A stretch of DNA of 32,000 bases from Candidatus Saccharibacteria bacterium oral taxon 488 (lineage in GTDB: Bacteria > Patescibacteriota > Saccharimonadia > Saccharimonadales > Saccharimonadaceae): contig CP047921.1 in NCBI GenBank assembly GCA_010202845.1, forward strand, positions 630,001 to 662,000. Direction: 5' to 3'. Positions 1 through 19,883 of this stretch are shown in pieces; positions within the stretch are counted from its first letter, which is position 1, and each line of letters begins with the position of its first letter. A program made the position numbers and the translations under genes. The notes under the pieces were generated by a model that saw only the letters and a program-made list of their open reading frames with translations, did no database searches and was not told the origin of the DNA.

Positions 1-127
1 GTAAGCCAAGTGATGAAATAGCTAAAATCGGAAACGTCAAAATAAGCAATAATGTAGCGATGATTATAGCTATAATTTTCTTAATGCTGAAACCAAAATT
101 TGTAAACAAAACTACCGCGCCGTTCAT
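1..127 (-). CDS. Partial CDS (N-terminus only, runs off the left edge): membrane-anchored protein, next gene of the T4SS operon
   Basis: ATG at 127..125 overlaps the VirB4-like stop as ATGA (124-127). Translation MNGAVVLFTNFGFSIKKIIAIIIATLLLILTFPILAISSLGL... stays open to position 1 and has a hydrophobic TM-like segment. Confidence 0.4.
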   Translation of the reverse strand, partial: MNGAVVLFTNFGFSIKKIIAIIIATLLLILTFPILAISSLGL

Positions 128-1902
128 GATGAATACAACTCCGCAGGATTAGTCGTGATGAGCGGGTGTTCTTTTTCGGCTGCCACAACTTTAACGGCGA
201 CATGGTTTTGGTCGGCGATAAGCAAAGCATCGCCTCGCTCGCACATGAGCAGAAAACTTTGTTCATATTCGCTGAGGTTAAATTCGTTAACCACGCCTTT
301 GATAGTCGTCGTATCCTGGCGCATTAAAATCCGCAGTGCGCTTTGCGAAGCAATAGCGCGACCATACTCACTTTTGAGAAAGTCATTAGCTTGTTGCGAT
401 ATAATTGACACGCCGAGATAATATTTGCGTGCCCGACGCACCAGTCCTGCTACAAACCGCGCCGACTCCTCGTGTTGCAACAAAATCCAGCCCTCATCGA
501 TAATCAGCAGCCGCTTTTCTGGCTTAGCCATGACTTGATTTTTCACAAAATTAGAGATAATTAACATCATAATTTGGCGCAGATTTTCTGGTAAATCTTT
601 GATATCGAAAATAACCAAGCGGTTGTCTAATTTAACATTTGTTTGCGCATTGAATACATCCGCCAGCGAGCCGGAAATATATTTTTCTAACTTTTCACAC
701 AATTTTAGCTGACCCAACTTTCGAAGTTCCGCGTATAAATCTTCTAAAAGCGGCGGTTTGGTTTTTGACTTTTTGTAGATTTTCAAAACCGCTTTGTCAA
801 TGGCGGCTTTTTCGCGCGCCGTTAAACTTTCAGCCATCAAACCGATTACGTCCATTAGATCTTGTGCATGCTCAGATAAATCACTAATTTCGTGAACAGT
901 CGTCGCTAGGTCAAAAGGGTTAATTTTCTGCTTACTCTTGGCTGATAATTTTATATACGTGCCTTTTACTGATTCGGCGAGGCGCTTGTATTCACGCTCT
1001 GGGTCGATGACGATGACACGCGTGCCTTGCATGAGTTGGCGTAAAATCTCGACTTTGGTGGTGTAACTTTTGCCAGCACCCGACTGCGCAAATGTGATTG
1101 AGTTAGCATTGTGTAAACTAAACCTGTCCAAAATAACCAGCGAGTTGTTTGATTTGTTGACACCATAAAGGATGCCCGATTCCTGCACCAATTCTGATGA
1201 CATAAACGGAAAAGTCAGAGCGGCGCTGGAACTATCAAGGTTGCGCTTTTGCGCCAATTGGTCTTCGCCGCGTGGCAAAATTGATTGCAGCGCCTCTAAC
1301 TGCTGATAGCGCGCTACTTTTGAGTAAAACAACCGCGCCGACAGATTAGCTTCAAGCAACTTGGTGGTTTTATCAAGTTCTTCTTTGGTCTCAGAACGAA
1401 TGCAAATATAGATCGCCATTTGGAATAATTTTTCCTGACCGCGCTGAATTTTATCGCGCAAATCAATCGCCGACTCAAGCGGGTCGGTAATTTCCGAGCC
1501 AACGATTCGTCCCTCGCGCATCATCGCCCGGCGTGTGGATTCAAGCTCGGTAATTTTACGATTTAGTTTTGGCAGCGCCGCTCGGGCGTCTACTTCATGC
1601 AGATGATAACTAATGTCGATGTCGTGATTAAAATGAATCAAGCTATCCATCCAGTCCGAACTCGCTACGAACGGATATCCAGAAATAAACAACGTGCGCA
1701 TGTACACACCGTCGATGCAAAGATAATCAACGTTTTCTTCCAGCCCAGCGTAGGATAAAATATCCAGCGCGTCTTGTTTGCCAAATGTGATATTGAGCTC
1801 TTTTTGCTGTTCCTCGCGCTGGCGGTCGCGGCGTCGTTTCGGAGCACTAATTGAGTCACTAATTCTTTTGATAAATACTGGTGTGCGCGGTTTTTTAATC
1901 AT
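124..1902 (-). CDS. virB4: T4SS ATPase, VirB4/TraE/PrgJ type: central and ATPase portion
   Basis: Walker A 'AQSGAGKSYTT', Walker B 'RLLIIDEGW', and 'YLCIDGVYMRTLFISGYP' typical of Gram-positive VirB4 proteins. Start placed at ATG 1902 (GGGAG 8 nt upstream; ATGATTAA overlap with the upstream stop). The ORF-track start at 1917 is also possible. Confidence 0.85.
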   Translation of the reverse strand: MIKKPRTPVFIKRISDSISAPKRRRDRQREEQQKELNITFGKQDALDILSYAGLEENVDYLCIDGVYMRTLFISGYPFVASSDWMDSLIHFNHDIDISYHLHEVDARAALPKLNRKITELESTRRAMMREGRIVGSEITDPLESAIDLRDKIQRGQEKLFQMAIYICIRSETKEELDKTTKLLEANLSARLFYSKVARYQQLEALQSILPRGEDQLAQKRNLDSSSAALTFPFMSSELVQESGILYGVNKSNNSLVILDRFSLHNANSITFAQSGAGKSYTTKVEILRQLMQGTRVIVIDPEREYKRLAESVKGTYIKLSAKSKQKINPFDLATTVHEISDLSEHAQDLMDVIGLMAESLTAREKAAIDKAVLKIYKKSKTKPPLLEDLYAELRKLGQLKLCEKLEKYISGSLADVFNAQTNVKLDNRLVIFDIKDLPENLRQIMMLIISNFVKNQVMAKPEKRLLIIDEGWILLQHEESARFVAGLVRRARKYYLGVSIISQQANDFLKSEYGRAIASQSALRILMRQDTTTIKGVVNEFNLSEYEQSFLLMCERGDALLIADQNHVAVKVVAAEKEHPLITTNPAELYSS

Positions 1903-2536
1903 TAATTTTACTCCCATCTCGCATTAACGCGGTGTGAATTGTCTGCAAAGCGCGTTCAGTTAGCGGCTGAATTTTTGCTTGCGCTGGGCTGTAGAAACTG
2001 TAGAACAAATCAAGCACTTCGAGGCTATCTAGCTGATCAGCGCGCATGCCGAGCCGCGCCATACCTTTGGCGATAATATCAATGCGGAGTTTGAGCTGTT
2101 CGCGGATTAAATCAAAATCAGCTTTGTTGTCGGTCGGTCGAAAAGGAATAATGATATAAAAATGCCGTGTCAAAATCTTGTTGTCGGTGATGAGCGAACG
2201 AATAAATTCATCGTAATTTTTCAGTTGAGTTTTGTAAACGGGAATCGTCTCGCTCTGCAATCGGTAGTTCAAATCCTCTAAATATCCGTCCATATCAATT
2301 TCGCGCGTACGTACTAAAATTTGAATCGGCCAACCAATCGAATTGAGAAAACTTTCGTAGGTATCAATGATTGCGTCTTGCTCATCCTCGCTACGCAGCT
2401 CAAAATTCAGCGCCGAAACGGACAAGATTGCCCGATAATTATTCTGTGGCAATAACAAAATTCCGTCGCGCACACCCTTTAGCGCAATCTGCCGCCTGGC
2501 GCTAGATTTAGCGTTTGACTTTCGTAAACCGAACAT
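1895..2536 (-). CDS. VirB4 N-terminal-domain-like protein encoded as a separate ORF
   Basis: 'ALKGVRDGILLLPQNNYRAILSVSALNFELRSEDEQDAIIDTYESFLNSIGWPIQILV' resembles, from memory, the N-terminal domain of Gram-positive VirB4 ATPases (Tn916 Orf16/TcpF type). Start moved to ATG 2536 (GAGGGGG about 6 nt upstream). 213 aa plus 592 aa is about the length of a full VirB4. Confidence 0.6.
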   Translation of the reverse strand: MFGLRKSNAKSSARRQIALKGVRDGILLLPQNNYRAILSVSALNFELRSEDEQDAIIDTYESFLNSIGWPIQILVRTREIDMDGYLEDLNYRLQSETIPVYKTQLKNYDEFIRSLITDNKILTRHFYIIIPFRPTDNKADFDLIREQLKLRIDIIAKGMARLGMRADQLDSLEVLDLFYSFYSPAQAKIQPLTERALQTIHTALMRDGSKIND

Positions 2537-3014
2537 GCAAACCCCCTCTCTTATCAGTTTCAAAACGAACATCAGCGGCTGGGTCGTCTATAATTTGGCG
2601 GGTTTTGATGGTTGATGCGTCATCCAATTTTTCTAGCTTTTGCGGCTTTTTGGTTGGTTGATTTGTGGCTTCTTCGTCTTCAGGTGGAGCACTTTTATAT
2701 TCATCACGAAACGCAGTAGTGTTTTTATTGAACAGATAATATTTTGGTCGCAAATTGTAACGCAGTACCGTCACCAGCCAAAGCGCAATGATTTTACCCC
2801 TAACACGAACCGACAAAACTCCACAAATCATCAAACTTAACGTCATCAAAACGTATTTATAAAGCGCGCCGTTCATAACCGGCGGCAGCAGCGCGAAAAC
2901 TCCCGCGCTAAAGAAAACAGGAATCATCAAGAGCACGATTTGTGAAAAACCGAGCTTGCCGATAATCCGATCTTCTACGGTAGTAACCTGCGCAGGAACG
3001 ACTGTCGTTTTCAT
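2508..3014 (-). CDS. PrgI/VirB3-like small T4SS membrane protein
   Basis: N-terminal 'VPAQVTTVEDRIIGKLGFSQIVLL' followed by two hydrophobic helices. It sits directly upstream of VirB4 and has an ATGA start/stop overlap with the upstream gene (3011-3014). Confidence 0.6.
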   Translation of the reverse strand: MKTTVVPAQVTTVEDRIIGKLGFSQIVLLMIPVFFSAGVFALLPPVMNGALYKYVLMTLSLMICGVLSVRVRGKIIALWLVTVLRYNLRPKYYLFNKNTTAFRDEYKSAPPEDEEATNQPTKKPQKLEKLDDASTIKTRQIIDDPAADVRFETDKRGGLHVRFTKVKR

Positions 3015-4528: not shown

Positions 4529-4534
4529 TAGCGT

Positions 4535-4876
4535 TTAACCTCCGAAGGCTTGTCGCGCTAAAGTCGTTACGATGTTCGCTAATACAAACGCCGCAATAAC
4601 AATCGCTAGACCAATTGCCGACCATGTGATAGTGCGCTTTGCTTTGTCTAGTTGCTCAGGATTTCCCGAGCTAGTGATATAGGTAAAGCCGCCAGCAACA
4701 AAAAAGCCGGTTGCTACCAGACCGGCTAGTCCCGCCACCACTTGGATAACGCTTCGTATAAAATTCTCGACATTGCTGACACCAGCGGGTGCAGCTAGGG
4801 CTACGTTCGCCAACACAAATGGCGCTCCAACTGAGATAAATATTGCCGCCAAACAATATGTTTTTCTTGACACCAT
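4535..4876 (-). CDS. TrbC/VirB2-like T4SS pilin-type protein
   Basis: 113 aa. Signal-like N-terminus 'AIFISVGAPFVLANVALA', then two hydrophobic helices separated by 'TSSGNPEQLDKAKR'. An AAGGGAG SD lies upstream, and this is the first gene of the operon. Confidence 0.55.
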   Translation of the reverse strand: MVSRKTYCLAAIFISVGAPFVLANVALAAPAGVSNVENFIRSVIQVVAGLAGLVATGFFVAGGFTYITSSGNPEQLDKAKRTITWSAIGLAIVIAAFVLANIVTTLARQAFGG

Positions 4877-5133
4877 AAACTCCCTTTCACCAGAGCGTAA
4901 ACTTTGTGTTTACCTCCGTTATTTTTACGTTAGCAGGCATTAATTTACTTGGCAAGACGGCACTTGAAAGTCTACTATGGTGGTATCAGTGTGTTAGTTT
5001 CCGGGAGGTTTGTTAAATCTATAGAGGTACAGCTATGTTCTGCTTTGAGCCGAGAATTAAATTAACGAACTTACTAAAAAATATATTTTGTCGCCAACTT
5101 TACACTAATAAAAATTACAAGTAAACTAAAAAC

Positions 5134-5442
5134 ATGAGCAAACTAAAATCTGAAAAGATCGTCATATCTTCGCCGCTATCGTTTAGCGGCTCGGCAAAGC
5201 GCATTTGGAAAATTACGGATGTGGACAATCCAGTGGTGAAAGCGTTGCTTAGTTTGGTGGCTGCCGCGCTCATTATGTTCGCTTGGGTTTTCGTGGCGTT
5301 TTGGTACGTGCTGATTTACGTTGTTTTTGGAATTTTGTTCATTCCGTATCGGCTACTGCGGCGAAGTAGCCGCAAGCAAAAGCAAGCAAAATTGCGGCAT
5401 CGTGAAGTGCTGGAGGCAATAGAGAAAAATCGTAACTTATAA
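5134..5442 (+). CDS. Small membrane protein (two TM helices, basic tail), function unknown
   Basis: 'LLSLVAAALIMFAWVFVAFWYVLIYVVFGILFIPY' followed by 'RRSSRKQKQAKLRHR'. TTTACA-17-TAAACT boxes are present, with the ATG 6 nt after the -10. Confidence 0.5.
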   Translation: MSKLKSEKIVISSPLSFSGSAKRIWKITDVDNPVVKALLSLVAAALIMFAWVFVAFWYVLIYVVFGILFIPYRLLRRSSRKQKQAKLRHREVLEAIEKNRNL

Positions 5443-6050: not shown

Positions 6051-7274
6051 ATGAATGATCGTACGCATAAAATCAATACAAACGAAGGTCTTATTGATGA
6101 GGCATTATCCCGTTCAGTAGCTGAAATTCTACCAAGCAAGAGAGAACTTAAAAAAGAACTACAAAGCGGCAAGCGATTGACGTTTTATCTAGGCATTGAT
6201 CCTACCGCCAGCTACGTTCACCTCGGACATTCGACAAACTATTTAATGCTTGAGCGCTTTCACGCCCTAGGTCATCGAATTATTGTATTGATTGGTGATT
6301 TTACGGCAATGATCGGTGATCCAAGTGATAAAACTTCAATGCGCGTGCAGCTAACGCGCGAACAGGTACTTGATAACTTAAAAACATTTAAACAACAGAT
6401 CGGAAAAATCCTAAACTTTAATGATGCCGATAATCCTATAGAATTTAAATTTAACTCAGAATGGCTTTCAAAGCTAACGTTTGAGGACTCTGTCGAGCTG
6501 GCCTCAAATTTTACGGTTCAGCAGATGCTTGAACGGGATGCATTCAAAAAAAGGGTTGCTGAGGAGAAGCCCCTTTTCGTGCATGAATTCTTCTATCCAT
6601 TAATGCAAGGGTATGATTCTGTGGCCCTAGATGTTGACGTGGAAGTGGGCGGCACTGACCAAACTTTCAATATGCTTGCTGGGCGTACACTGCTGAAACG
6701 TTACAAACAGAAGGAAAAGTTTGTAATTACGACAACTCTATTAGTTAATCCAGATACGGGCGAGAAGTTGATGAGTAAGAGCCTTGGTACTGGTGTAGGA
6801 TTGGACCTTGGCGCCAAAGAGATGTTCTTCAAGATCATGCAAATATCAGACGCCGGCATCTATCAGTGTTTCGTGGACTGTACGCGTCTATCAATGGGCG
6901 AGATTGCCGAAATAAAAAAGCGGCTTGATAGCAATGAAAATCCCCGTGACATTAAAAAAGAGCTTGCTCGAGAAGTGGTGTCTATGTACCACGGCAGTGA
7001 GGCTGCTTTTGATGCCGAAAAGCGATGGGTATCTGAAGTTAGCCATAAGAATTTAGCTCAAGATATTCATACTGTTCAAATTGGTTCTGACGAGTCAATT
7101 GTTGATTTGATAGCTCGTCTAGATATAGTTAAAAGTCGCGGCGAAGCCAGGCGTTTAATCAAGCAAAATGCTGTTAAAATTAACAACAATAGAGTAAACA
7201 ATGAGAACGCAACCCTTATTAATGGCGACATCTTGCATGTTGGGAAAAAGCATGCCTTTAAAGTGTCTGTATAG
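6051..7274 (+). CDS. tyrS: Tyrosyl-tRNA synthetase (canonical-looking copy)
   Basis: HIGH motif 'HLGH', 'GDFTAMIGDPSDK', 'YPLMQGYD', 'GGTDQTFN', KMSKS-type 'LMSKS' and a C-terminal S4-like 'SRGEARRLIKQNAVKINN'. A TACAAT box ends 8 nt before the ATG. Confidence 0.9.
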   Translation: MNDRTHKINTNEGLIDEALSRSVAEILPSKRELKKELQSGKRLTFYLGIDPTASYVHLGHSTNYLMLERFHALGHRIIVLIGDFTAMIGDPSDKTSMRVQLTREQVLDNLKTFKQQIGKILNFNDADNPIEFKFNSEWLSKLTFEDSVELASNFTVQQMLERDAFKKRVAEEKPLFVHEFFYPLMQGYDSVALDVDVEVGGTDQTFNMLAGRTLLKRYKQKEKFVITTTLLVNPDTGEKLMSKSLGTGVGLDLGAKEMFFKIMQISDAGIYQCFVDCTRLSMGEIAEIKKRLDSNENPRDIKKELAREVVSMYHGSEAAFDAEKRWVSEVSHKNLAQDIHTVQIGSDESIVDLIARLDIVKSRGEARRLIKQNAVKINNNRVNNENATLINGDILHVGKKHAFKVSV

Positions 7275-7284
7275 GTAGCTCATT

Positions 7285-7842
7285 ATGAATGAGACTGACA
7301 TCATAAATCTGCTTCGCAGAGACAATGAGTTTATGGAGGTGGCTAGAGGTATAAATTCACAAGTACCACCCGATTGTAGTTGGTGTATATTTTCTGGTTT
7401 CGTGCGCAATAAAGTGTGGGACTATATCCATGGCAATACCACTCCTACTAGAGCATCGGATATTGATGTCGCCCTCTATATGCCAGGCGACAATACGATG
7501 GCGATAAACGTCAAGCAGAAGCTAGAAGAGTTATATCCGACCTATAGTTGGGATGTTTCGAACTTCGCCTATAGCCATACTGAAAACAACGACAGCCCTT
7601 ACGTGAATTTGATCGACGGGTTGAGTAAAGAGCTCGAGACGATCACAAGTGTTGGTTTAACTCTTCGCTCAGACGGCTCTCTAGTAATAATCGCCCCTCA
7701 CGACATTGGTGATCTTGTTAAATGTATTATTCGTCCTACGCCTATCATCTATGCAAATCCAGAAAAACGACAGCTGATCGTTGATCGTATATCAAGAAAA
7801 CGCTTGCTTGAAAAGTGGCCAAAGCTACAGGTTATTATATAG
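7285..7842 (+). CDS. Nucleotidyltransferase-family protein (NTP_transf_6/DUF925-like)
   Basis: 'WCIFSGFVRNKVWDYIHG...SDIDVALY', 'WDVSNFAYSH', 'IRPTP' and 'KWPKLQV' match my recollection of the PF06042 pattern. Confidence 0.55.
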   Translation: MNETDIINLLRRDNEFMEVARGINSQVPPDCSWCIFSGFVRNKVWDYIHGNTTPTRASDIDVALYMPGDNTMAINVKQKLEELYPTYSWDVSNFAYSHTENNDSPYVNLIDGLSKELETITSVGLTLRSDGSLVIIAPHDIGDLVKCIIRPTPIIYANPEKRQLIVDRISRKRLLEKWPKLQVII

Positions 7843-9505: not shown

Positions 9506-9593
9506 TAGTTTCTTAATACTATCTAATAATACCACACTGTTATCGTTCTGATGTAGTCAAGCTAATTGTTTACTTTTATGATATAACTATACC

Positions 9594-10334
9594 ATGGTTT
9601 CCTTTTTAAGTTATAATGTTGGCGGTGCACAGCAGTACGACCATGTGCTGGCAATTGCCAGGCTACTCCATACAATAAATACATCTATTGTCTGTTTGCA
9701 AGAAGCTAAATGGGCAAATGATGAATCGTTTGTAAACGATTTTGTCAAAAAATCAGGCTATAACAACTGTCGTATATGTCTTTCGTCTCGCACAGACAAC
9801 CACTCAATCGTTCTTTCTAATCTTCCCGTACTAGGAATGATTCCATTCAACCAAATGGCAAATTCCGGCATTATAGTTGATATAATGGCGAATATGCCAG
9901 TACGTGTCGCGGCTCTTCATCTTGCTCCCTCACCCGAGCAACAACGTGTTATCGAGCTAAATTCTATCCTGGGATACCTAAGCAATGATATGAATGTCGT
10001 AATGGCGGGCGACTTTAATGCGATCGCACCCAATGAGCATGCCCCAGTTCTAGGTTTGTCTAGCTCTGCTAAGCCAGAGTCTGTAAAACATGACGCAATC
10101 CAACTACTTATTAATTCCGGTTTTCATGATATCGGGAGAGAACATACTGTCAGCCCCATAGCCACGGTACCTCTCTCTGCCGATAGGGGTGTTACGTATC
10201 AAAACCTTCGACTAGACTATTTTTTCGTTAATACCAAGCTTGCTCCATTAGTTCGTTTATACCGTGTTATTGACACGTCAAAAACTCAAAATCTATCCGA
10301 CCATCTCCCTGTTTTTATGCAGCTAGGCGATTGA
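9594..10334 (+). CDS. Endonuclease/exonuclease/phosphatase (EEP) family protein
   Basis: 'VCLQEAKW', 'MAGDFNAI' and the C-terminal 'LSDHLPVFMQL' motif. TGATATAAC ends 6 nt before the ATG. Confidence 0.8.
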   Translation: MVSFLSYNVGGAQQYDHVLAIARLLHTINTSIVCLQEAKWANDESFVNDFVKKSGYNNCRICLSSRTDNHSIVLSNLPVLGMIPFNQMANSGIIVDIMANMPVRVAALHLAPSPEQQRVIELNSILGYLSNDMNVVMAGDFNAIAPNEHAPVLGLSSSAKPESVKHDAIQLLINSGFHDIGREHTVSPIATVPLSADRGVTYQNLRLDYFFVNTKLAPLVRLYRVIDTSKTQNLSDHLPVFMQLGD

Positions 10335-10359
10335 CGTAGTGCGGTATTTATATTACAAT
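10331..10359 (+). promoter_or_regulatory. Sigma70-type promoter TTGACG-17-TACAAT for the TyrRS paralog; implies a leaderless mRNA
   Basis: Hexamers at 10331-10336 and 10354-10359 with a 17-nt spacer. The ATG at 10366 lies 6 nt after the -10. Confidence 0.55.
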
Positions 10360-10365
10360 CGGACT

Positions 10366-11616
10366 ATGAGTTTTAGTGAGAAGTGGTTTAATCGTAGCAA
10401 TGAATCTCTTGAGGGTATTTCAACTGATGAATTCATCGGTTACGTTCAACCGAAAACACAAGAAGCAATAACAATGGATGGCATACGTGATCAACTTGAC
10501 TCCGGGCATCCTTTGAATGTTAAGTTTGGCACTGACCCAACTGGGCCAGATTTACACCTAGGTCATGTTGTTCCAATTCGTGTTCTTGATTTGTTTAGTC
10601 GTGCGGGTCATAATATTGACCTTGTATTTGGTGACTTTACAGCAAAGGTCGGTGACCCTAGTGGACGATCTAATGAGCGCCCTTTACTTTCTGATTCAAC
10701 AATCTCTGAAAACGTTTCGACTTTCCGTGATCAAGTAGATAAATATTTCGATACACACACCTCAAATGTAAAAGTTTCCAATAATAGTGCCTGGCTTGAT
10801 GAAATGTCACTATCTGACGTCTTTGAATACTTACAGGAAACGAATTTAAGTGAGGCTATGCAGCGTCGTGATTTCCGCAAGCGCATACTAGCTGGCAAGG
10901 CTATCAGTTTAGCAGAAGCGTTTTATCCAACAATGATGGGTATCGACTCAGTTGAACTCAAAACAGACATTGAGATTGGCGGAATTGACCAGCTATTAAA
11001 CTTTCAACAAACACGTAAGGTTCAACGTAACCAAGGTCAAGTTCCAGAAGATGTTATTATGACTCCAATTCTTGAAGGAACGTCTGGAGGTGGTGTAAAA
11101 ATGAGTAAGTCTCTTGGTAACTACGTACCTCTCAACGCTACGCCAGATGAAGTATATGGCAAGATGATGTCTATTCCTGATGATATCGTATTGAACTATA
11201 TAACAGCTTTTGCGCCCGTGCATACTGACGAGGTTTCCGGGCTGAAGCAAAGCATCGAATCTAGACCACTTGAGATGAAGAAACAACTGGCAACTTATTT
11301 AGCCGCCTTGTCAATTTCTAATATGGATGATGGTCTTGCCGCGAGAGAGCGGTTTGAGCGGCGCTTTGCAAGAAAAGAGTTTGCCGAGGATGATATGGAG
11401 AAACTTGTGAGCGGATCTGCTTTAATTGATTCACTTACCGCGACTGGTAAATATAAGTCGCGTAATGAAATTCGTCGGTTAGCAAAACAGGGTGGAATTA
11501 AGCTCGACGGTACATCTCTTTCAGAAGACGAGGTTATGACGACTACTCCCCCTATCGGATCTATTGTTACTGTTGGCAAGCGAACTATTTTTCGTATTGC
11601 CAAGTCCGAGGAATGA
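10366..11616 (+). CDS. Divergent tyrosyl-tRNA-synthetase paralog with an altered amino-acid pocket
   Basis: 'HLGH', 'GDFTAKVGDPSGR', 'GGIDQLLN', exact 'KMSKS' and S4-like 'SRNEIRRLAKQGGIKLDG'. However, it has 'KFGTDPT' and 'YPTMMGID' where TyrRS has Y...DPT and Y..LQ.YD. Confidence 0.85.
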   Translation: MSFSEKWFNRSNESLEGISTDEFIGYVQPKTQEAITMDGIRDQLDSGHPLNVKFGTDPTGPDLHLGHVVPIRVLDLFSRAGHNIDLVFGDFTAKVGDPSGRSNERPLLSDSTISENVSTFRDQVDKYFDTHTSNVKVSNNSAWLDEMSLSDVFEYLQETNLSEAMQRRDFRKRILAGKAISLAEAFYPTMMGIDSVELKTDIEIGGIDQLLNFQQTRKVQRNQGQVPEDVIMTPILEGTSGGGVKMSKSLGNYVPLNATPDEVYGKMMSIPDDIVLNYITAFAPVHTDEVSGLKQSIESRPLEMKKQLATYLAALSISNMDDGLAARERFERRFARKEFAEDDMEKLVSGSALIDSLTATGKYKSRNEIRRLAKQGGIKLDGTSLSEDEVMTTTPPIGSIVTVGKRTIFRIAKSEE

Positions 11617-11619
11617 TTG

Positions 11620-12501
11620 ATGGAGTTTACGCACCTAACGAAGCGACAGAATGAGGAGTCTATTGCCCCAGAAACTATTGACATTAGCTTAACGGGACGT
11701 TGCCAACTTGATTGTGCGTGGTGTTGGGGTGAAAAGCATACTATAGGTGTTAATCATGAAGCTGATGATTGGAACAATCTTCTTAACAATTTTTCATCTG
11801 AAGGCACCTCCCACGTTGTATTTACCGGAGGTGAACCTCTAATGGTTCCTTTTTTGCCAGATGTAGCGAAACATGCAAAGAATATTGGATTACGCACTAC
11901 TCTTTCGACCAACGGCATATTGTTGCCTAAACGCCATAAATCTATTATGCCGCACATTGATGACTTAGGATTACCTCTTGACGGTCCAACCAGTGGTGTC
12001 AATAAAAATATGCGTAAGGGTCGTATAGATAACTTCCTGAAAGTTATAGAAAGTGCAATGCTGGTCCAGGAAGAATATCCAGACACCTCGCTTACGATTC
12101 GTACTGTTATTGCCCGACCAAATATCAATTCTGTACCAGATATCCCTGAAGTTCTTGAACGGGAGGGGGTCGACCTTAGTAGATTGCGCTATAAAATGTA
12201 TCAAGTGGAACCGATTGGACCTCGCGCTACCGAAACAGCTACTGATTACTGGATGGTTGATGAGGCAGAGTGTTTAGAGGTTGCTAATCAAATCTCTCAA
12301 CGCTACCCAAATCTGCAACACACCCTTCAGCTTTATCGAAACACATCTGGAAGATACTATCAGATAATGCCTCAAGGTAACGCCTATGGAACATATATTG
12401 ATAGCAAAGGTACTCCGCATATGGTAGAGTTGGGGAATCCAATGACAGATTTTCGCAATGCTCTCGGCATGATAGCTACTCGCTACGCGTGCCTGTATTG
12501 A
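11620..12501 (+). CDS. Radical SAM enzyme (compact; single 4Fe-4S CX3CX2C motif)
   Basis: 'GRCQLDCAWCWG', 'VVFTGGEPLM' and 'LSTNG'. A GAGGAA SD lies upstream. The gene starts 4 nt after the TyrRS-paralog stop. Confidence 0.85.
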   Translation: MEFTHLTKRQNEESIAPETIDISLTGRCQLDCAWCWGEKHTIGVNHEADDWNNLLNNFSSEGTSHVVFTGGEPLMVPFLPDVAKHAKNIGLRTTLSTNGILLPKRHKSIMPHIDDLGLPLDGPTSGVNKNMRKGRIDNFLKVIESAMLVQEEYPDTSLTIRTVIARPNINSVPDIPEVLEREGVDLSRLRYKMYQVEPIGPRATETATDYWMVDEAECLEVANQISQRYPNLQHTLQLYRNTSGRYYQIMPQGNAYGTYIDSKGTPHMVELGNPMTDFRNALGMIATRYACLY

Positions 12502-13538
12502 TTCATAGCTTGACGCATATGATCATTGTAATCACGAATCTGCTTATATGTTTCGCTGAATCGTGGGTAAGTATCAAGATACGTCCAAATATCTTTGGAA
12601 TATATGGAAAGTTGACTCGTTAGTTCAGGATTTCGAGGCAGAGGTAATATCCAAAAATGCACACTCGCTGGCTTAAGATATTTTTCGTCGTGGTAAATAT
12701 GCGAGGTCTCGACCCCTAATTCAGCAACGTTTTCCTTAACTCGCTTAGCAATAATCATGCAATGATCAAAGTATTCTTGCGGCATCTTATCAATACTGCG
12801 ATAATGTTTTTTTGGACTAACTATATAGAACCCAGGTATTGCATATTTTGCGTCTTGTCGAACTACTAAATCCTCGTCTTCATACACTGGAGCCAGAACG
12901 TCATCTATTTCATTTGTAAATTTATCTAAAAACTCACCCTTTGACATAGTGTCATCACATAAAAAGGCTTGGAAGTTCTTTGCGCCACCAATACAAACAT
13001 AGTACTTTTTTCCTACCGGTGCCATAGGTAGTTCTAGTTCATCGTCAATTTCAAGGATTTCGTCAATGGTAGTCTCGTGCCATTCCTGGTCATGCTTTTT
13101 GTCGCCACTGGGTTGATAAGGAATTGCGTCATAGCCCCTTGTTTGATCCTCAAAACACCGTTCAGTAGCATTGTCATATTTTATCACATCTTGCAAGTCA
13201 TGGGCGTTATAGCTTTTAATATACGATTCAATGTGCGGCTGATACACTTCTACGTCAAAACGACTTGCCAATCTACCGATATGAAGCGGCAATGTAATAC
13301 TTGTCACGGGTTGTTCTGTATACTCTTCAACATAAAGTCCACACAATGCTATATCAAGACTTTTTAATCCAATGCGTAATTTACGTTGATAAGACGCTAG
13401 CAATCTTACCTCATCGTCAGATAGATCCGTAAATCGCTCTACGCCGCTCACGGGATTAATCGCATACATACCAGGAACATAGCTGTCTTGCGCCTGTTGT
13501 ATGGTAAAATGCTCACCCAGTTTCCTCGTATTACGCAA
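12483..13538 (-). CDS. Tandem degenerate HIT-like (GalT/Apa-like architecture) protein
   Basis: The C-terminal half 'IPGFYIVSPKKHYRSIDKM...ASVHFWILPL' resembles a HIT domain with only the central His of HxHxH. The N-terminal half 'VPGMYAINPVSGVERFTDL...ITLPLHIGRL' repeats the pattern. Confidence 0.45.
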   Translation of the reverse strand: MRNTRKLGEHFTIQQAQDSYVPGMYAINPVSGVERFTDLSDDEVRLLASYQRKLRIGLKSLDIALCGLYVEEYTEQPVTSITLPLHIGRLASRFDVEVYQPHIESYIKSYNAHDLQDVIKYDNATERCFEDQTRGYDAIPYQPSGDKKHDQEWHETTIDEILEIDDELELPMAPVGKKYYVCIGGAKNFQAFLCDDTMSKGEFLDKFTNEIDDVLAPVYEDEDLVVRQDAKYAIPGFYIVSPKKHYRSIDKMPQEYFDHCMIIAKRVKENVAELGVETSHIYHDEKYLKPASVHFWILPLPRNPELTSQLSIYSKDIWTYLDTYPRFSETYKQIRDYNDHMRQAMNQYRHA

Positions 13539-14799
13539 TTTTGTGGTTTCCTTTCTTTTGCAGCTTTACAATTATTTCCGCTGCTTTTGTTTGCAGATCA
13601 GATTCTGACTTTATATTGGTTGCATCGTGTATTATCGTAGCGATATGTTCACGTATATTATTGACATCCAGTTTAGACCTAGTGTATAGAGATATTAAGC
13701 TTGAGGGCGATTGTTCTACGATTGTGTTTATTGCCGCCAAAGGAGTCTGCTGGTGTGAGGCGCTCGCTATGGCATTAGTAGATAAGTTATCATCCATAAG
13801 CGCAAGTAATCCATTCATTACATAATGGTCTATTTTTTCACGATCACCGCTAGACCAACATTGCCTGACAAGTATTGACTCAAAGCGATTGATCACTCGG
13901 TACCTCGCTTCATTACGGCGTCGTACTACACATGCTGAAATGTCATGAAGTATGTCAATTTCGGTTGGATATATATCTGCAATAAGATGTCCTAGATCGT
14001 TTGGGCGAATGCAGTGTTTTTGCATTGATCGTACGGGCATCTCTGCGTCGAATACGATCTGTTCAATAATATTTCGTAAATCGCTATTATCAGTAAGATA
14101 TCCTGTCATATCTTTGAATGTTTGCTCATAACGAACAAGTTGGGGTTCTTCTAACTTATATTCAATTATCTTACTCAATAGTTCTTCAAGGATATGTCTA
14201 TCAAATAAATAGCTCCAGTTTAGCAAGAAGTTCGTGTACCACAAGCGATTGAGTCGAACTGGCATATTTAGCTTGCTAAGCACAACATCCTCGAGGTCTA
14301 GCAAATACATCTCGTTATTAACCTCTATAATATTGCGCGGCAGGAACCCTGAGTGTACAATGCCGCGACCCATTAGGAATTCAATAATTTCAATGTATTG
14401 TTTGGCTTCCAGCTTAGGAAAGGCTGCCTCATAGGATAATGTATTTAAGTCCTTACCTATAAATGGCAAAACTAAGTACGCTTGTTTAATATTTCCCACC
14501 ACATCAATTATATCAGGCACTACTACTCGTAGAGTCATCCCGCAGATATTTGTGCCGTCGATAATCTTACTGGTGCGAGCTGACTTATTTAACTCATCCC
14601 TAGCCTTGATTCGATCGCATCGTTTTGCTATATAGCATATACCGTTATATTCGAATTTACGAAAACGATCTTCTACGTCGTAAAACCAAACACCAGGATT
14701 ATATTGTTCATTATTATTGCTATAGGCTTGTTGTGTACGTTCTTCTAGGGTTAAGGCACGGTTCATGTAAATACGCTTGCTTTTCTTATGGGTGACCAT
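13531..14799 (-). CDS. Protein-kinase-like fold protein lacking the catalytic Asp, with a C-terminal helical domain
   Basis: 'CYIAKR' (beta3 Lys), 'GIVHSGFLPRNII' (HxD..N loop with Asp replaced by Gly) and 'YLLDLEDV' (DFG-equivalent Asp). A TATAAT box ends 7 nt before the ATG at 14799. Confidence 0.45.
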   Translation of the reverse strand: MVTHKKSKRIYMNRALTLEERTQQAYSNNNEQYNPGVWFYDVEDRFRKFEYNGICYIAKRCDRIKARDELNKSARTSKIIDGTNICGMTLRVVVPDIIDVVGNIKQAYLVLPFIGKDLNTLSYEAAFPKLEAKQYIEIIEFLMGRGIVHSGFLPRNIIEVNNEMYLLDLEDVVLSKLNMPVRLNRLWYTNFLLNWSYLFDRHILEELLSKIIEYKLEEPQLVRYEQTFKDMTGYLTDNSDLRNIIEQIVFDAEMPVRSMQKHCIRPNDLGHLIADIYPTEIDILHDISACVVRRRNEARYRVINRFESILVRQCWSSGDREKIDHYVMNGLLALMDDNLSTNAIASASHQQTPLAAINTIVEQSPSSLISLYTRSKLDVNNIREHIATIIHDATNIKSESDLQTKAAEIIVKLQKKGNHKIA

Positions 14800-14849
14800 A
14801 TGGTTTATTATATGGTATTATTTTTTTCTAATATTATCAATAGACAGTA

Positions 14850-15200: not shown

Positions 15201-15208
15201 AGATTATT

Positions 15209-16015
15209 TTACAACTCATCTAATGAAAGAAGCTCACCAGACTCGTCAATATTCGACCAAATAGCAGAACTCTCACGCACCAAGTTCTCAGCCGTCGCTG
15301 TATATACCTCAACTTCATCATCCAAGTCAAACCGACTGCGCACGGCATGAGCAGCGCGCCGCAAGCGGTTTTCTGTGGCTGGATTTTCCAGCAAAAATAA
15401 GAACCTCGGTAGGTTGCTGTTCGTCGCGTCCCAGCCGCCATCATCGAAAAATTCCATATAATTTACCAGACGGCGATTGATGGCGCTAGGCGGCATGTCT
15501 TTAGGTATGACATCAAAGAAAAATCGCCGCAACCCATCGGCTGTTTTGAGCGACAAAAATGCGTCGGGCGGATTAGCCGGAAAATAGCTATAAAGCGCCA
15601 TTTCGCGCCGCAAAAATACTTTTAGCGGTGGATATTGGTGCTGTAGTTTATTGGTGCACGAATACACATTAACTACATGATTAACGAATGATTGACCAAC
15701 GACTTTGTCGCGGTAGCTCGCCTTGATGATGGCGTTGGTAACGCGTTCGCTGCCGTAAATCAATTGCAGTTGCTTAAGTCCTTTTGGTGTCAAATAATAC
15801 GCTGCCGGCACACCCCGCAATTTATAGCTTTTGTCATATCGTCTAGCCACAAAACCATGTTTCATCAGTACATTCAACTTTTCAAACAAATTTGAACCCG
15901 ACTTAATACCCAGACTATCTGCCAACAATTGACGACTACCGAACCGATATTTGTATAACGTTTCCAGGATGTCTATCTGTCCCTGCTTGAGCGCTGAACG
16001 TTTGTCTATTTTCAT
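15209..16015 (-). CDS. Replication-relaxation (Replic_Relax, PF13814-like) family protein
   Basis: N-terminal wHTH pattern 'GQIDILETLYKYRFGSRQLLADSLG...LNVLMKHGFVARR...AAYYLTPKGLKQL', plus 'PDAFLSL' and 'FFDVIP' later in the protein. Start moved to ATG 16015 (GAAAGG 6 nt upstream). Confidence 0.55.
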   Translation of the reverse strand: MKIDKRSALKQGQIDILETLYKYRFGSRQLLADSLGIKSGSNLFEKLNVLMKHGFVARRYDKSYKLRGVPAAYYLTPKGLKQLQLIYGSERVTNAIIKASYRDKVVGQSFVNHVVNVYSCTNKLQHQYPPLKVFLRREMALYSYFPANPPDAFLSLKTADGLRRFFFDVIPKDMPPSAINRRLVNYMEFFDDGGWDATNSNLPRFLFLLENPATENRLRRAAHAVRSRFDLDDEVEVYTATAENLVRESSAIWSNIDESGELLSLDEL

Positions 16016-16156
16016 TATCAGCCTTTCACGATTCCTTTCTAGTATATTTATATAGAAAGAAGAGAAAAATAGCAATATATAACAGTATTTTTATGGATGA
16101 ATTATACTGTATATCGATATTCGGTATATTTTACATCATAAAATTGCTAAAAACTA

Positions 16157-16185
16157 TTGAATATTTGTAGTACAAATAGTACAAT
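16157..16185 (+). promoter_or_regulatory. Promoter TTGAAT-17-TACAAT whose spacer is a perfect 7-1-7 palindrome ATTTGTAgTACAAAT (operator-like)
   Basis: Hexamers at 16157-16162 and 16180-16185; palindrome at 16163-16177. It lies upstream of the RHH gene. Confidence 0.5.
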
Positions 16186-16290
16186 TTAAGTAGAGGTTTA
16201 ATCATAAAACTGGCTCGTTAATAACACGAAAAACTAGGCTTCAAACAGTAGCGCTTTTTGGTTATCATCCCGTGTAGTATACTGGGGTTA

Positions 16291-16503
16291 ATGAGCCAAT
16301 CAAGAATTCAGCTACAAATCGATACATCAAAAGAAGTGCGCAACCGAGCCAAAGCCGTTGCCTATAGCCAAGGCATGAGCCTGACCGAATTGGTGCTTAA
16401 GGCGCTAGCGACGGTTGGCGACAAGGAGCTGAAACAGCTGATTGAAAAGGATTTGCAGGAGCGCTCTGGACGCGGGCGTCCGCAGCAGTTCAAGTCTAGT
16501 TGA
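16291..16503 (+). CDS. Ribbon-helix-helix (CopG/Arc-like) DNA-binding protein with a C-terminal AT-hook (GRGRP)
   Basis: 'SRIQLQIDTSKEVRNRAKAVAYSQGMSLTELVLKALA' fits a beta-alpha-alpha RHH pattern, and the C-terminus reads 'RSGRGRPQQ'. TGTAGTATACT ends 7 nt before the ATG at 16291. Confidence 0.55.
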   Translation: MSQSRIQLQIDTSKEVRNRAKAVAYSQGMSLTELVLKALATVGDKELKQLIEKDLQERSGRGRPQQFKSS

Positions 16504-16532
16504 TGTTATGACGAGTCGCGACAGGAGGGATT

Positions 16533-16715
16533 ATGGCGCGACCAAAAGGAAGTAAAAATAAACCAAAAGCCCCGCTGATGAAGCAATTTTCGTTCACGAC
16601 CGAGCAGCGGATTAGGCTGGTGGCAAATTTAATCGTCGAGAAAATCACCGAAGATGGCGCGTTTGCCAAAAAGCTAATTACGATACTGGAGGATGATAAA
16701 AATGTCTCCAAATAA
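16533..16715 (+). CDS. Small DNA-binding-like protein with an HMGA-type AT-hook N-terminus; possible recombination directionality factor
   Basis: 'MARPKGSKNKPK' nearly matches the HMGA AT-hook core 'GRPKGSKNK'. An AGGAGGGA SD lies upstream. Its 3' end overlaps the recombinase start by 14 nt. Confidence 0.45.
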   Translation: MARPKGSKNKPKAPLMKQFSFTTEQRIRLVANLIVEKITEDGAFAKKLITILEDDKNVSK

Positions 16716-18438
16716 TCAGCCGAGAATTGGTTTGCTGGCGATACGGGTTTCTTCTGACAAGCAAGGTCTTGATGGCGACTCGCCCGAGGCCCAGCGCGAA
16801 CAAGGCGAAGCTTACGCCAAGGCGCACAATATCATAATTACCGAGACGATTATTTTGCTTGAATCGGCGTCACACGAAACGCAGCCGATGCAAAAAGTAA
16901 TCGACGTTTGCAAGGACAAAAGCAAAGGTTTTCAAGTTGTGCTGATTAAGTCAATCGACCGTTTTACGCGCGGTGGCGGAGATTATTATTCGCCGTTGAA
17001 ACGACAGTTGACGCGCCTAGGCATCGCCCTTGAGGATATGTACGGCGTGATTGGCAAGCAGCAAATAAACACGCTGGAGCACACTGGATTTAAGTATTAT
17101 TGGAGCGAGTTTAACCCGACGCAAAAGTCGGAGTATTTGGAGGCAGAGCGCGCCAAAGACGAGATGCGCGACATCATGAGCCGGATGATTGGCGCGGAAA
17201 TTCGCTACACTCAGCTAGGCTATTGGATGCGTCGTCCGCACTATGGTTTTCGTAGTGTCAAGGTGGATACAAAAAATGGTCGACGTACGATCTTGAAGCC
17301 TGATGAGAACGAGGCGAAGTTTATCATCAAGCTTTTTGAAATGCGCGCCGCTCATATTTATACCAATCAGCAAATCGCCGACGAACTAAATTCTATGGGC
17401 TTTCGCTCGCGCGTTACGATTGTGCGCGACAAATACGACCGAACCAAAATTAAGTGGCAAATTGGCGGCAAGCAAATGACCGCCAAAATGATCGACCAGT
17501 ACGCCAGTAAACTGGTTTATTGCGGCATCATCAAAGAAAAATGGACGCATGACCAGCCAGTCAAGGCGCAGTTTGATGGATTGGTTAGCATCGAGCTTTT
17601 TAATGAAGCGAATCGCGGGCGGATTTTTGTGGAGATTGACAGTCGCGACATGATAACCATCAAGCGTAGAGCCGTGCCGGAGCATTTGAAAAATAAACAA
17701 ATTTACAATCCAGAATATCCGTATAAACAGGTCGTTGCTTGTCCGAAGTGCGGCAAAACTCTTTCTGGCAGCGCTTCGCGTGGCAAGATGGGCGCGTATT
17801 ATCCGGCGTATCATTGTAGTCGCAACGGGCATTATTTTCGCGTACCCAAGCCCGAATTCGACAAGACGCTCGAGGATTTTGTACGGACTATTACCGTAAA
17901 GCCGGAGTACGTTGACGACATTATCGCTGCTATTGCCGAGCTGTGGCGCGAACGCCAAGCAAAGCAGCTAGAAGCCAATCAGCAGCGCCTAGAGCACCGC
18001 CAGAGCCTGCAAAACCAAATTCGGGCGACCGTGGACAGAATGCGCGTTGTTACGAGCGAAACGGCACTTGCGTACCTAGAGGAAGACATTATTAGCGCCG
18101 AAAACGAATTAGCAAACCTAGACAAAGAAATCGCCAATCAGCCCAACCTACAAGCCGAATTTGACCAAGTCTTGCAATACGCCAAATATATTTTGGAACA
18201 CCTGCCAGAACTACTGCTTGACCTCTGTAATCCCTTGCGGAAAGCCGCCTTTTTCGCCGCTATCTTCAATAAAGTCCCAACCTATGATGAAATAAAATTT
18301 GGAACTCACAAAAACAGCTCGCTACCAGAGGTAAACGAGCTGTTCCGTATCCGAATGGATGATAAATCCTTTATTGGTGACCTCACGGAGAATCGAACTC
18401 CGATTGCCAGGATGAAAACCTGGTGTCCTGACCGTTAG
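16702..18438 (+). CDS. Large serine recombinase (resolvase/invertase N-domain, recombinase domain, zinc ribbon, coiled coil)
   Basis: 'IGLLAIRVSSDKQG' (catalytic Ser), 'LIKSIDRFTRGG', zinc ribbon 'CPKCGKTLSG...YHCSRNGH' and a coiled coil 'QRLEHRQSLQNQIRATV...'. GGAGGA lies 8 nt before the ATG at 16702. Confidence 0.9.
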   Translation: MSPNNQPRIGLLAIRVSSDKQGLDGDSPEAQREQGEAYAKAHNIIITETIILLESASHETQPMQKVIDVCKDKSKGFQVVLIKSIDRFTRGGGDYYSPLKRQLTRLGIALEDMYGVIGKQQINTLEHTGFKYYWSEFNPTQKSEYLEAERAKDEMRDIMSRMIGAEIRYTQLGYWMRRPHYGFRSVKVDTKNGRRTILKPDENEAKFIIKLFEMRAAHIYTNQQIADELNSMGFRSRVTIVRDKYDRTKIKWQIGGKQMTAKMIDQYASKLVYCGIIKEKWTHDQPVKAQFDGLVSIELFNEANRGRIFVEIDSRDMITIKRRAVPEHLKNKQIYNPEYPYKQVVACPKCGKTLSGSASRGKMGAYYPAYHCSRNGHYFRVPKPEFDKTLEDFVRTITVKPEYVDDIIAAIAELWRERQAKQLEANQQRLEHRQSLQNQIRATVDRMRVVTSETALAYLEEDIISAENELANLDKEIANQPNLQAEFDQVLQYAKYILEHLPELLLDLCNPLRKAAFFAAIFNKVPTYDEIKFGTHKNSSLPEVNELFRIRMDDKSFIGDLTENRTPIARMKTWCPDR

Positions 18439-18449
18439 ACGATGAGGCC
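18375..18449 (-). tRNA. tRNA-Glu (anticodon TTC), CCA encoded
   Basis: The reverse complement GGCCTCATCGTCTAACGGTCAGGACACCAGGTTTTCATCCTGGCAATCGGAGTTCGATTCTCCGTGAGGTCACCA folds as a cloverleaf with a 7-bp acceptor stem, anticodon loop TTTTCAT and a GGAGTTCGATTCTCC T-arm. Confidence 0.9.
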
Positions 18450-19877: not shown

Positions 19878-19883
19878 ATTATT

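Follow-up and report, generated by a model that had tools for sequence, protein, structure and literature searches.

Gene content of the window

This study concerns a 32,000-nt stretch of Candidatus Saccharibacteria bacterium oral taxon 488 (contig CP047921.1, positions 630,001 to 662,000), hereafter the window, and a putative integrative and conjugative element (ICE) within its left part. The window carries a type IV secretion system (T4SS) operon, a low-GC gene block, genes for Replic_Relax and RHH-like proteins, and a gene for a large serine recombinase (LSR) that runs into a tRNA-Glu gene on the opposite strand. This gene content, which had been proposed in a first-pass annotation of the sequence, was borne out by Pfam. 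Related loci are labelled L and individual proteins P below. The features of the window are as follows.

1..127, minus strand: N-terminal codons of a CHAP protein (VirB1-like cell-wall hydrolase); the translation resembles the N-terminus of the L002 CHAP protein
124..1917, minus strand: VirB4-like T4SS ATPase (Pfam P-loop_TraG, AAA_10, DUF87); 96% identical to L010 over the available part
1895..2572, minus strand: TraC-like T4SS component (PF26593 on homologs), 97% identical to L010; its true start is probably an internal Met, the homologs having 211-218 aa
2508..3014, minus strand: PrgI/VirB3-like protein (Pfam PrgI), 97% identical to L010
3011..4528, minus strand: VirB6/TrbL-like channel protein with a pilin-like N-terminal domain (Pfam T4SS_pilin and TrbL)
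4535..4876, minus strand: VirB2/TrbC-type T4SS pilin (Pfam T4SS_pilin and TrbC)
5134..5442, plus strand: orf102, a small conserved membrane open reading frame (ORF) of the backbone, found at the equivalent place in L002, L010 and L029-L032
5437..5940, minus strand: HxlR-type regulator (Pfam HxlR) at the T4SS/cargo border, a position kept in relatives
6051..14799, no single strand: low-GC variable cargo (GC 0.39-0.43) with, by Pfam, two TyrRS paralogs, NTP_transf_6, a PLP decarboxylase, EEP, radical SAM and HIT proteins, and a 422-aa protein of unknown type
15209..16075, minus strand: Replic_Relax protein (PF13814, MOB_C-like), a candidate relaxase or replication initiator; homologs start at an internal Met (16015)
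16258..16503, plus strand: small RHH-like protein upstream of the recombinase (weak ParD/RHH match), beside the LSR in all relatives; a possible regulator or directionality factor
16533..16715, plus strand: small conserved ORF overlapping the recombinase start, 72-80% conserved in L001-L011 and L034
16702..18438, plus strand: LSR of 578 aa (Pfam Resolvase; profile match to TP901-1 integrase)
18375..18380, no strand: attR core TGGTGA (complement of tRNA nt 71-76, TCACCA), the right boundary of the element as given by the junction quartet and the inversion reconstruction described below
18375..18449, minus strand: tRNA-Glu(UUC) (ARAGORN), the attB target, split from its terminator by the insertion
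18464..18492, minus strand: tRNA-Glu promoter on the host side (TAGACA, 17 nt, TG-TACAAT)

The GC content is about 0.39-0.48 to the left of 18.4 kb versus 0.50-0.56 to the right, and is lower across the whole element.

Recombinase frame and tRNA-Glu

The recombinase ORF can begin at 16693 or 16702 and terminates with a TAG codon at 18436-18438, whereas tRNA-Glu(ttc) occupies 18375-18449 of the opposite strand. The 64-nt overlap (18375-18438) claimed in the first-pass annotation was thus confirmed at exact coordinates. Because nearly all of the 120 closest recombinase homologs have 578 aa and an N-terminus of MSP..., the true start is 16702. The tRNA is intact with an encoded CCA, and its extended -10 promoter (18492-18464, minus strand; 10/12 matches) lies on the far, right-hand side, also as described earlier. 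Within the window, we found neither a terminator 3' of tRNA-Glu nor a second or partial tRNA-Glu copy as a candidate attL.

The overlap is not due to chance. An antisense-tRNA tail is present in about 112 of the 120 closest homologs, and the homolog tails all diverge directly after the conserved ...YG(D/E). Beyond this point the C-termini comprise several antisense-tRNA-Glu tails, one derived from another tRNA, and a small number unrelated to tRNA. At least six different tRNA-derived tails occur among recombinases that share 97% or more of 557 residues with P0026 and P0100. Furthermore, P0026 and P0100 are identical at 557/557 residues, the former being in the attR state (antisense tRNA) and the latter in an attP-like state with the tail GEPHHLQ*. 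Since near-identical recombinases bear different tails, the attachment (att) core lies inside the recombinase ORF, and the end of the ORF is not element DNA.

Empty and occupied sites

Metagenome contigs were scanned for the exact 40-nt 3' half of the tRNA-Glu of the window, yielding 80 loci, which were classed by a recombinase match made without the antisense-tRNA tail and by a hairpin test. About 26 of them were empty attB sites, in which a terminator hairpin abuts the tRNA 3' end. Four were filled with a full-length recombinase of the window's family (LSR1; 45-49% identical to that of the window), three or four with a full-length recombinase of a second family (LSR2), and one held an LSR1 fragment as a relic; 42 were unclassified, with various sequences abutting the tRNA 3' end. 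The comparison with empty sites, as proposed in the first-pass annotation, therefore showed the element to be present at some of these sites and absent from others rather than universal.

All four junctions were available for a sister element of the LSR2/P0126 type at tRNA-Glu, namely attB (L100), attL (L042), attP-like (L041) and attR (L087 and L095). These junctions fit attP x attB exactly, with the exchange falling within TGGTGACC, and the shared att core is only 6-8 nt long. The attL terminator hairpin of L042 is near-identical to that of the L100 attB, and the terminators of L100 and L103 resemble the attL flanks of L042, L016 and L038.

Several further observations were made at tRNA 3' ends. 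In the window itself, tRNA-Lys(ctt) at 24923-24999, together with 25000-25050, ends in ...TGGAGGGCC (complement) directly after a terminator hairpin, and is an empty version of the target held by an L012-type sister element. Other sequences recur at the tRNA-Glu 3' end in L059, L064, L069, L086, L111 and L120, and also in L051, L066, L073, L090, L094, L118 and L126. One recurrent class has a recombinase C-terminal relic of about 66 aa with a CHAP gene 2 kb away, and another has a TATCTGTAA motif about 12 nt from the tRNA. Judging from these sequences, the tRNA-Glu 3' end seems to be a hotspot for several element families. Just outside attL, a module of about 130 nt lies between two cores of the form terminator plus TGGTGA (L043, ~470-640; L037, ~460-700; L045, ~9700-9880). 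Its first 19 nt are those of the tRNA-Glu 3' end, after which it diverges, and L124 has a similar 19-nt partial duplicate. The module had no match in ARAGORN or Rfam; possible identities are a small RNA that resembles a tRNA, a tRNA copy that has decayed, or a miniature element between att sites. Finally, L015 (~5929-6350) and L045 (~6739) have a second, decayed recombinase 3' end with arm peptide about 3.5 kb outside the current attL, and these copies seem to be left over from previous insertions into this site.

Left end of the element

In L002, the recombinase 3' end is joined via the core to a gene for a 155-aa PLD-like protein, orf79 and a gene for an 874-aa VirD4-type coupling protein (type IV coupling protein, T4CP), followed by CHAP, VirB4, TraC-like, PrgI, VirB6, pilin, orf102 and HxlR genes. 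This order is a circular permutation of that in the window, and the same join of the LSR end to the PLD/T4CP end via the core is present in L001. A search of reference genomes with the PLD protein gave 15 Saccharibacteria loci. In 13 of the 15, the region upstream of PLD consists of a terminator hairpin with a T-run, the core, a conserved arm of about 125 nt, and then PLD; the attL core in these loci is TGGTGA, or TGGAGG, TGGTGC or TGGCTG in sub-families. Wherever the contig permits, here and in many metagenome contigs, T4CP and the entire T4SS come after PLD. The left-end order is accordingly host terminator, att core, arm, PLD, orf79, T4CP, CHAP, VirB4, TraC-like, PrgI, VirB6, pilin and HxlR. 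A CHAP gene after VirB4, and a T4CP of 826-874 aa (TrwB_AAD_bind, TraG-D_C) between CHAP and PLD, were found in L002, L013, L015, L016, L021, L028-L033 and L045. In L012, both ends of an element at tRNA-Lys are on a single contig: attL lies upstream of PLD, the recombinase extends 58 nt into the antisense tRNA-Lys, and the 8-nt TGGAGGGC is common to both ends.

Since attL lies beyond PLD and T4CP, which follow VirB4 and CHAP, the T4SS is inside the att-bounded unit. The first-pass annotation had considered both that the T4SS belongs to the element and that only 15.2-18.4 kb is mobile; the former is what the relatives show, including the LSR-PLD join of L001 and L002, and the latter is contradicted by the att junctions that enclose the T4SS. 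Its suggestion that the element extends past the window also held, because positions 1-127 of the minus strand encode the CHAP N-terminus and the operon thus continues to the left. By analogy with the relatives, the left end of the element is probably about 4-6 kb left of the window. A coupling protein, which the first-pass annotation had sought in that direction, is present between CHAP and attL in the relatives and would be expected just left of the window here.

Derivatives in which the T4SS is deleted and both ends are kept were found in L035, L012 and L001. In L035 (8900-12955), PLD and orf79 are fused to an HxlR remnant, followed by a P-type ATPase and ArsR, and in L012 (10001-18851) the T4CP is reduced to a 50-aa relic. 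These two loci, which have no T4SS, look like mobilisable non-autonomous relatives.

Probable position of the strand exchange

Compared with L149, which has a 99% identical PLD and the canonical arm, L002 shows a 92-nt inversion in its PLD-side arm. When an inversion was simulated with exchange at the GA of TGGT-GA and at the inverted GA in GATGGTGAGGT-TC-GCC, where it reads TC on the top strand, the result matched L002 at 119/119 nt. Exchange at AC, or at CC as suggested by the dyad symmetry of attB, shifted the reconstruction by 1 nt and was rejected. This reconstruction places the crossover dinucleotide, in all appearance, at the GA of 18379-18380, which is tRNA nt 71-72. With the crossover at this position, the element ends there and donates the 3' terminal nucleotides of the tRNA, and the last 19 codons of the recombinase ORF together with its stop codon (18381-18438) are host DNA, antisense to the tRNA. 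The earlier prediction that excision would change the recombinase C-terminus agrees with this.

The internal site of the L002 inversion is joined to LSR1 elsewhere as well, in L004 and in L151/L152 (LSR about 80% identical). The L002 junction with the GEPHHLQ* tail was considered as the canonical excised attP and rejected, since it is the exact 92-nt inversion and the internal site is reused in L004 and L152; the tail is, as judged from the reconstruction, a rearrangement product.

Spread and mosaic composition

The PLD end of the P0126 type was 99.4-100% identical over 700 nt in seven contigs, whereas the 200 nt beyond the core were about 59% identical, which is the background level. The seven flanks consisted of six different terminators or host flanks and one LSR2 3' end. 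These results indicate recent spread of the element between hosts.

The closest relative of the window is L010. Its T4SS proteins are 97% and its recombinase 95% identical to those of the window, versus 67% for FolD, 82% for the phosphorylase, 84% for EPSP synthase and 89% for SHMT among the flanking housekeeping proteins; at the nucleotide level, the T4SS is 92% and the flanking genes are 79-85% identical. Separate histories of the T4SS and the recombinase, which the first-pass annotation had named as the finding that would speak against one element, were thus not observed; the two share a history that is younger than that of the host genes. Replic_Relax and RHH of the window, with 94-95% identity, are closer to L001. 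The elements are mosaic, because these two proteins are closer to the L001 lineage and the T4SS is closer to L010.

The cargo block was different in every relative, with unrelated genes in L010, L001, L003, L035 and L153, in line with the earlier reading of the low-GC block as cargo. In the window, the two TyrRS paralogs are divergent (407 and 425 aa), and the 422-aa protein is kinase-like. The cargo may encode a tyrosine-derived antimetabolite pathway or an aminoacyl-tRNA-dependent one, with a resistance synthetase. The cargo of L036 likewise has radical SAM and EEP genes, and also NUDIX and dTMP kinase genes. L027 and L034 form one Logan contig of 51 kb with a tandem arrangement. The first part contains LSR2, core, PLD, orf78, an HlyD-like protein, a C39 ABC exporter and a 3451-aa RTX-like giant protein, and the second part contains a T4SS reversed relative to the usual orientation, a Replic_Relax-like gene, LSR1 and tRNA-Glu(ctc). 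This element thus carries a secreted protein of giant size along with its exporter, and L001 has a similar protein of 3831 aa.

Other variable sequences were noted outside the element. The host side from tRNA-Glu to FolD (18526-23458) also varies in comparison with L010 and L011; this part of the window encodes a DUF11 surface protein together with a 7TM histidine kinase, and that of L010 a different HisKA protein and a response regulator. In L148, a (CTGA)n repeat and a reverse-transcriptase fragment lie beside the tRNA. At 30390-31365 of the window, two paralogs of 146 aa, in opposite orientation to each other, account for an inverted repeat of 251 nt with 80% complementarity; their homolog in L010 bears an N_methyl (type IV pilin-like) domain.

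Recombinase tails and the arm peptide

In every sub-family, one reading frame of the PLD-side arm has no stop between the core and a point shortly after PLD begins, and this frame encodes a conserved peptide, LEHLFDDLFxLRDRFKxLGMxIKDGKVYLPDLE and variants. This frame is the LSR1 frame in eight loci and is that of the recombinase in the clade of the window. In a comparison of eight arms, the peptide frame had 314 synonymous and 276 non-synonymous codon differences, as against 68:533 and 66:534 for the remaining two frames, and the nucleotide differences at the three codon positions numbered 211, 157 and 455. The pattern of substitutions shows that the arm peptide is under purifying selection in its frame. 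Because the arm is open in the LSR1 frame, LSR1 in its canonical excised form would acquire about 45 residues.

P0113 (601 aa) is an LSR fused in frame to the arm peptide. It was considered as the canonical excised form of the recombinase and rejected, since it derives from a tandem array with a degenerate element between the recombinase and the tRNA. Other LSR sub-families (LSR2; L079, L110 and L121) cross the core in another frame and stop after 7-13 codons. What is conserved just before the core is the DNA, TCxCTT(T)ATGGTGA, and not the protein. On account of these two findings, we consider the tRNA-encoded tail to be most likely a tolerated by-product of the position of the core.

Two side observations concern the arm. 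In the arms of L018, L028, L035 and L149 (GTATTTTTTTAG), seven consecutive T residues extend to the LSR2 stop codon; slippage by -1 at this run would fuse LSR2 to the peptide, and was rejected as a general explanation because L027 does not have the run. At about 18190-18230 of the window (LSR residues ~497-510), ILEHLPELLLDL resembles the arm peptide FLEHLFDDLFEL, also at the DNA level (TTAGAACACCT), and the arm may have originated as a partial duplication of the recombinase 3' region. The PLD-side arm gave 0 matches in IMG/VR.

Recombinase and Replic_Relax proteins

The LSR scored 30.6 bits against Pfam Resolvase (cut-off 23.3), and 19.1 bits against Recombinase and 18.1 bits against Zn_ribbon_recom, both below their cut-offs. 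The profile of its family matched the catalytic domain of the TP901-1 integrase (3bvp, E=1.1e-5). Within the family, Ser17 in RVS(S/T)xKQ is invariant, as are C347, C350, H371, C372 and H377 of a CxxC..HC..H motif, and residues 392-483 form a coiled-coil-like stretch. Single-sequence PDB searches with the LSR and with Replic_Relax gave no useful matches, and an exact look-up of the window's recombinase returned no record.

The Replic_Relax protein scored 31.6 bits against its Pfam family (cut-off 25.3). Its AlphaFold (AF2) model (pLDDT 84.6, pTM 0.81) consists of a MarR-like winged helix and an alpha/beta domain, for which the best Foldseek matches were the FokI and PaqCI nucleases with low TM-scores (0.34); since the scores are low, the fold call comes mainly from Pfam and from FokI and PaqCI being the top matches. 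PF13814 belongs to the PD-(D/E)XK superfamily (PMC3424549) and is the MOB_C relaxase class, MobC (Coluzzi et al. 2017; PMC5357655). The protein is thus a candidate relaxase, and as a candidate it would answer the argument that these systems have none. The complete oral genome of TM7 phylum sp. oral taxon 349 (1.02-Mb contig) has two different Replic_Relax genes, P0268 and P0299, which suggests two elements in a possibly cultivable strain.

Interpretation and alternative explanations

Taken together, these findings make it very probable that positions 1-18380 of the window are the right-hand 18.4 kb of an ICE of Saccharibacteria (Saccharimonadia) that carries the T4SS and is inserted in the 3' end of tRNA-Glu. 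The backbone would start with attL, the peptide-coding arm of about 125 nt, a PLD/Nuc-like gene, orf79, the VirD4-type coupling protein and CHAP, continue with VirB4, TraC-like, PrgI, VirB6, pilin, orf102, HxlR and the variable cargo, and end with the Replic_Relax (MOB_C-like) nuclease, RHH, the small ORF, the LSR and attR. We propose that the LSR exchanges strands at the GA in TGGTGA, the complement of tRNA nt 71-76. The LSR's own reading frame continues for about 20 codons past this core. When integrated, the LSR ORF therefore finishes in the antisense tRNA, and the element supplies the last nucleotides of the tRNA, which is thereby kept intact. Excision would restore the tRNA plus terminator (attB) and rejoin the LSR 3' end to the PLD-side arm, resulting in a new C-terminus and in PLD and orf79 downstream of the LSR. 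In this model the LSR would catalyse both events, Replic_Relax would serve as the relaxase, and the T4SS would move the element. The element quite likely belongs to a new ICE family, in which the core of a serine integrase lies within the integrase's own ORF and at the last nucleotides of the tRNA, in a phylum whose T4SS had been held to be non-mobile. It is likely to be fixed in some lineages, and a dual role of the T4SS is plausible.

Mobility could instead be confined to the recombination module (~15.2-18.4 kb; Replic_Relax, RHH and LSR), with the T4SS as a vertically inherited chromosomal neighbour. The T4SS is indeed nearly universal in Saccharimonadia and is described as chromosomal, and the mosaic of L001-type Replic_Relax/RHH with an L010-type T4SS would also suit such an arrangement. 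However, the left att junction beyond PLD and T4CP encloses the T4SS, the LSR end joins the PLD/T4CP/T4SS end in L002, and the stretch of the window from the T4SS to the LSR contains neither an att-like core nor a piece of a tRNA. The T4SS proteins of the window and L010 are 97% identical against 67-89% for host genes, and the T4SS-deleted L035, L012 and L001 keep both ends, which makes this explanation highly improbable. A prophage or an integrated plasmid was also considered: many prophages have large serine recombinases, plasmids and phages are known to carry Replic_Relax proteins, and the 37.9-kb L002-type contig could be a plasmid. Neither the window nor the elements of the relatives have capsid, terminase, portal or tail genes, the IMG/VR scan for the arm found nothing, and a complete MPF_FATA-type T4SS is present, with a T4CP in the relatives, so that the chance of this origin is close to negligible.

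Several points weigh against an active ICE. In published work, the T4SS of Saccharibacteria is reported as essential to their epibiotic growth and is considered a chromosomal, non-conjugative system (PMC12102498, PMC12857230). The relaxase assignment is by family and fold, and Replic_Relax is 55% identical to L010 but 94% to L001, which makes the internal modules mosaic. The attL of the window's own element is outside the window, and at least one genome, L045, has PLD and the T4SS with no recombinase within the ~2 kb available beyond the pilin gene. No unambiguous free circular form was found in the data searched; the attP-like junctions were tandem arrays (L027, L148, L028-30), rearranged (L001/2/4/151/152) or on short contigs (L041). 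A former ICE that is now fixed has to be considered as well, with the T4SS co-opted for epibiosis (macromolecule uptake or delivery), the recombinase a relic or rarely active, and no conjugation. Essentiality of the T4SS for growth on the host in S. epibionticum, the general scarcity of canonical relaxases, L045, the missing circle and the many decayed and tandem relics (L015, L028-30, L148) are all as expected from fixation. Set against this, nothing in the LSR ORF, in either kind of att arm or in the tRNA is broken here, elements that are nearly identical are found in different flanks and next to differing host tRNA sequences, many sites are empty, the element genes of the window and L010 are more similar than the host genes, the MOB_C-like protein and T4CP are conserved in the backbone, and the T4SS could serve two uses in an ICE that is still active. 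We therefore regard complete fixation as rather unlikely. A separate question is whether the alternative recombinase C-termini are a functional switch, with the tRNA tail of the integrated form and the ~40-aa arm peptide of the excised form conferring different activity or directionality in the manner of IntP and IntX of phage Mx8, which is a precedent. The arm is open from the core to PLD in every sub-family, with the LSR1 frame in eight loci; its frame is under purifying selection (314:276 versus 68:533 and 66:534), and P0113 is an in-frame LSR-peptide fusion. Against a switch, other LSR sub-families stop after 7-13 codons and never reach the peptide, the element cannot select a tail that is host-encoded and host-variable, DNA and not protein is conserved just before the core, P0113 comes from a tandem array and not from a canonical attP, and the arm may instead hold a small gene of its own for the peptide, coupled to PLD. 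Such a switch is accordingly unlikely.

Returning to the ICE, a bolder proposal can be made, which we hold tentatively and consider doubtful: the T4SS essential for epibiosis, instead of being fixed in the chromosome, might be the conjugation machine of a widespread family of tRNA-targeting LSR ICEs that still move between hosts with a divergent MOB_C-type relaxase overlooked by standard screens. In these ICEs, the att core inside the recombinase ORF would give rise to state-specific recombinase isoforms and an excision-dependent LSR-peptide-PLD-orf79 operon, which would control directionality.

Significance and comparison with known systems

In the published view, the Patescibacteria T4SS is chromosomal, relaxase-free and repurposed (Microb Genom 2025; FEMS Microbiol Rev 2025), and it is the sole T4SS reported as essential for its bearer. 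Quinonero-Coronel et al. (2025; PMC12102498) described it as chromosomal, without a relaxase and probably co-opted, and did not mention recombinases, tRNA sites or att junctions. A review of December 2025 called it the first T4SS essential for its bearer. Literature searches for Saccharibacteria with serine recombinases or conjugative elements gave no prior description. If, in Saccharimonadia, the T4SS does reside in a mobile, att-bounded element with a T4CP and a MOB_C-like nuclease, conjugation among ultra-small epibionts becomes testable, and an 'essential' apparatus may be exchanged horizontally together with cargo, here a tyrosine-related biosynthetic or resistance cluster and elsewhere metal resistance, sugar modification and giant adhesins. 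The recombinase and its tRNA core of 6-8 nt would then also be a tool of natural origin for site-specific integration in organisms whose genetic manipulation is very difficult.

The genes and their order are the same as in the Patescibacteria T4SS described before in Saccharimonadia, with VirB4, TrsD/TraC-like, PrgI, VirB6, VirB2-like pilins, CHAP and VirD4-like components (PMC12102498; Wang 2023, as cited in PMC12857230). In these sources, the system is treated as fixed, chromosomal, relaxase-free and co-opted for roles other than conjugation, whereas here it is enclosed by att sites of a serine recombinase and lies beside a MOB_C-like gene. Unlike the published fixed system, moreover, the T4SS of the window is missing from many orthologous tRNA sites and is more conserved between hosts than their housekeeping genes.

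ICEBs1 (tRNA-Leu) and TnSmu1 are MPF_FATA elements of monoderm hosts that likewise insert at a tRNA 3' end and leave the tRNA intact (PMC10098952, PMC3715440). They share with the present element VirB4, VirB6, PrgI/VirB3, a CHAP hydrolase, variable cargo, a recombinase at one end and, as judged from the relatives, a coupling protein. They differ in having tyrosine integrases, longer direct repeats and MOB_T or MOB_P relaxases; the element described here has an LSR with a 2-nt crossover, a core of 6-8 nt, a MOB_C-like candidate, VirB2-type pilins and a host from the candidate phyla radiation (CPR/Patescibacteria). With the MOB_C relaxases TraX of pAD1 and MobC of CloDF13, the Replic_Relax protein shares PF13814 above the gathering threshold and a winged helix with a PD-(D/E)XK fold; unlike them, it is very divergent and has no PDB sequence match, and we regard it as a candidate nickase.

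A large serine recombinase is the sole integrase, and long direct repeats are absent, in the conjugative or mobilisable Firmicutes elements Tn5397 (TndX), Tn4451 (TnpX) and SCCmec (Ccr) as well. These elements insert into protein-coding genes or GA-type dinucleotide targets, not into tRNA 3' ends, and to our knowledge none has been reported with an att core inside the recombinase ORF. The similarity of the present LSR to known LSRs is remote, the TP901-1 catalytic domain being the only match, by profile. Phage Mx8 targets the 3' end of a tRNA gene, and its integrase exchanges a C-terminus of 112 residues for one of 13. Its attP lies inside the integrase coding sequence, and the integrase of the prophage acquires a new 3' end and a different C-terminus (PMC6070905; Tojo 1996; Magrini 1999). 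The present element resembles Mx8 in that the att core is inside the integrase ORF and integration alters the C-terminus. It differs in that Mx8 uses a phage tyrosine recombinase, whereas here about 20 codons are swapped in a serine recombinase of a conjugative element that has no phage genes. For a serine integrase, having the core within the recombinase ORF is new as far as we could find.

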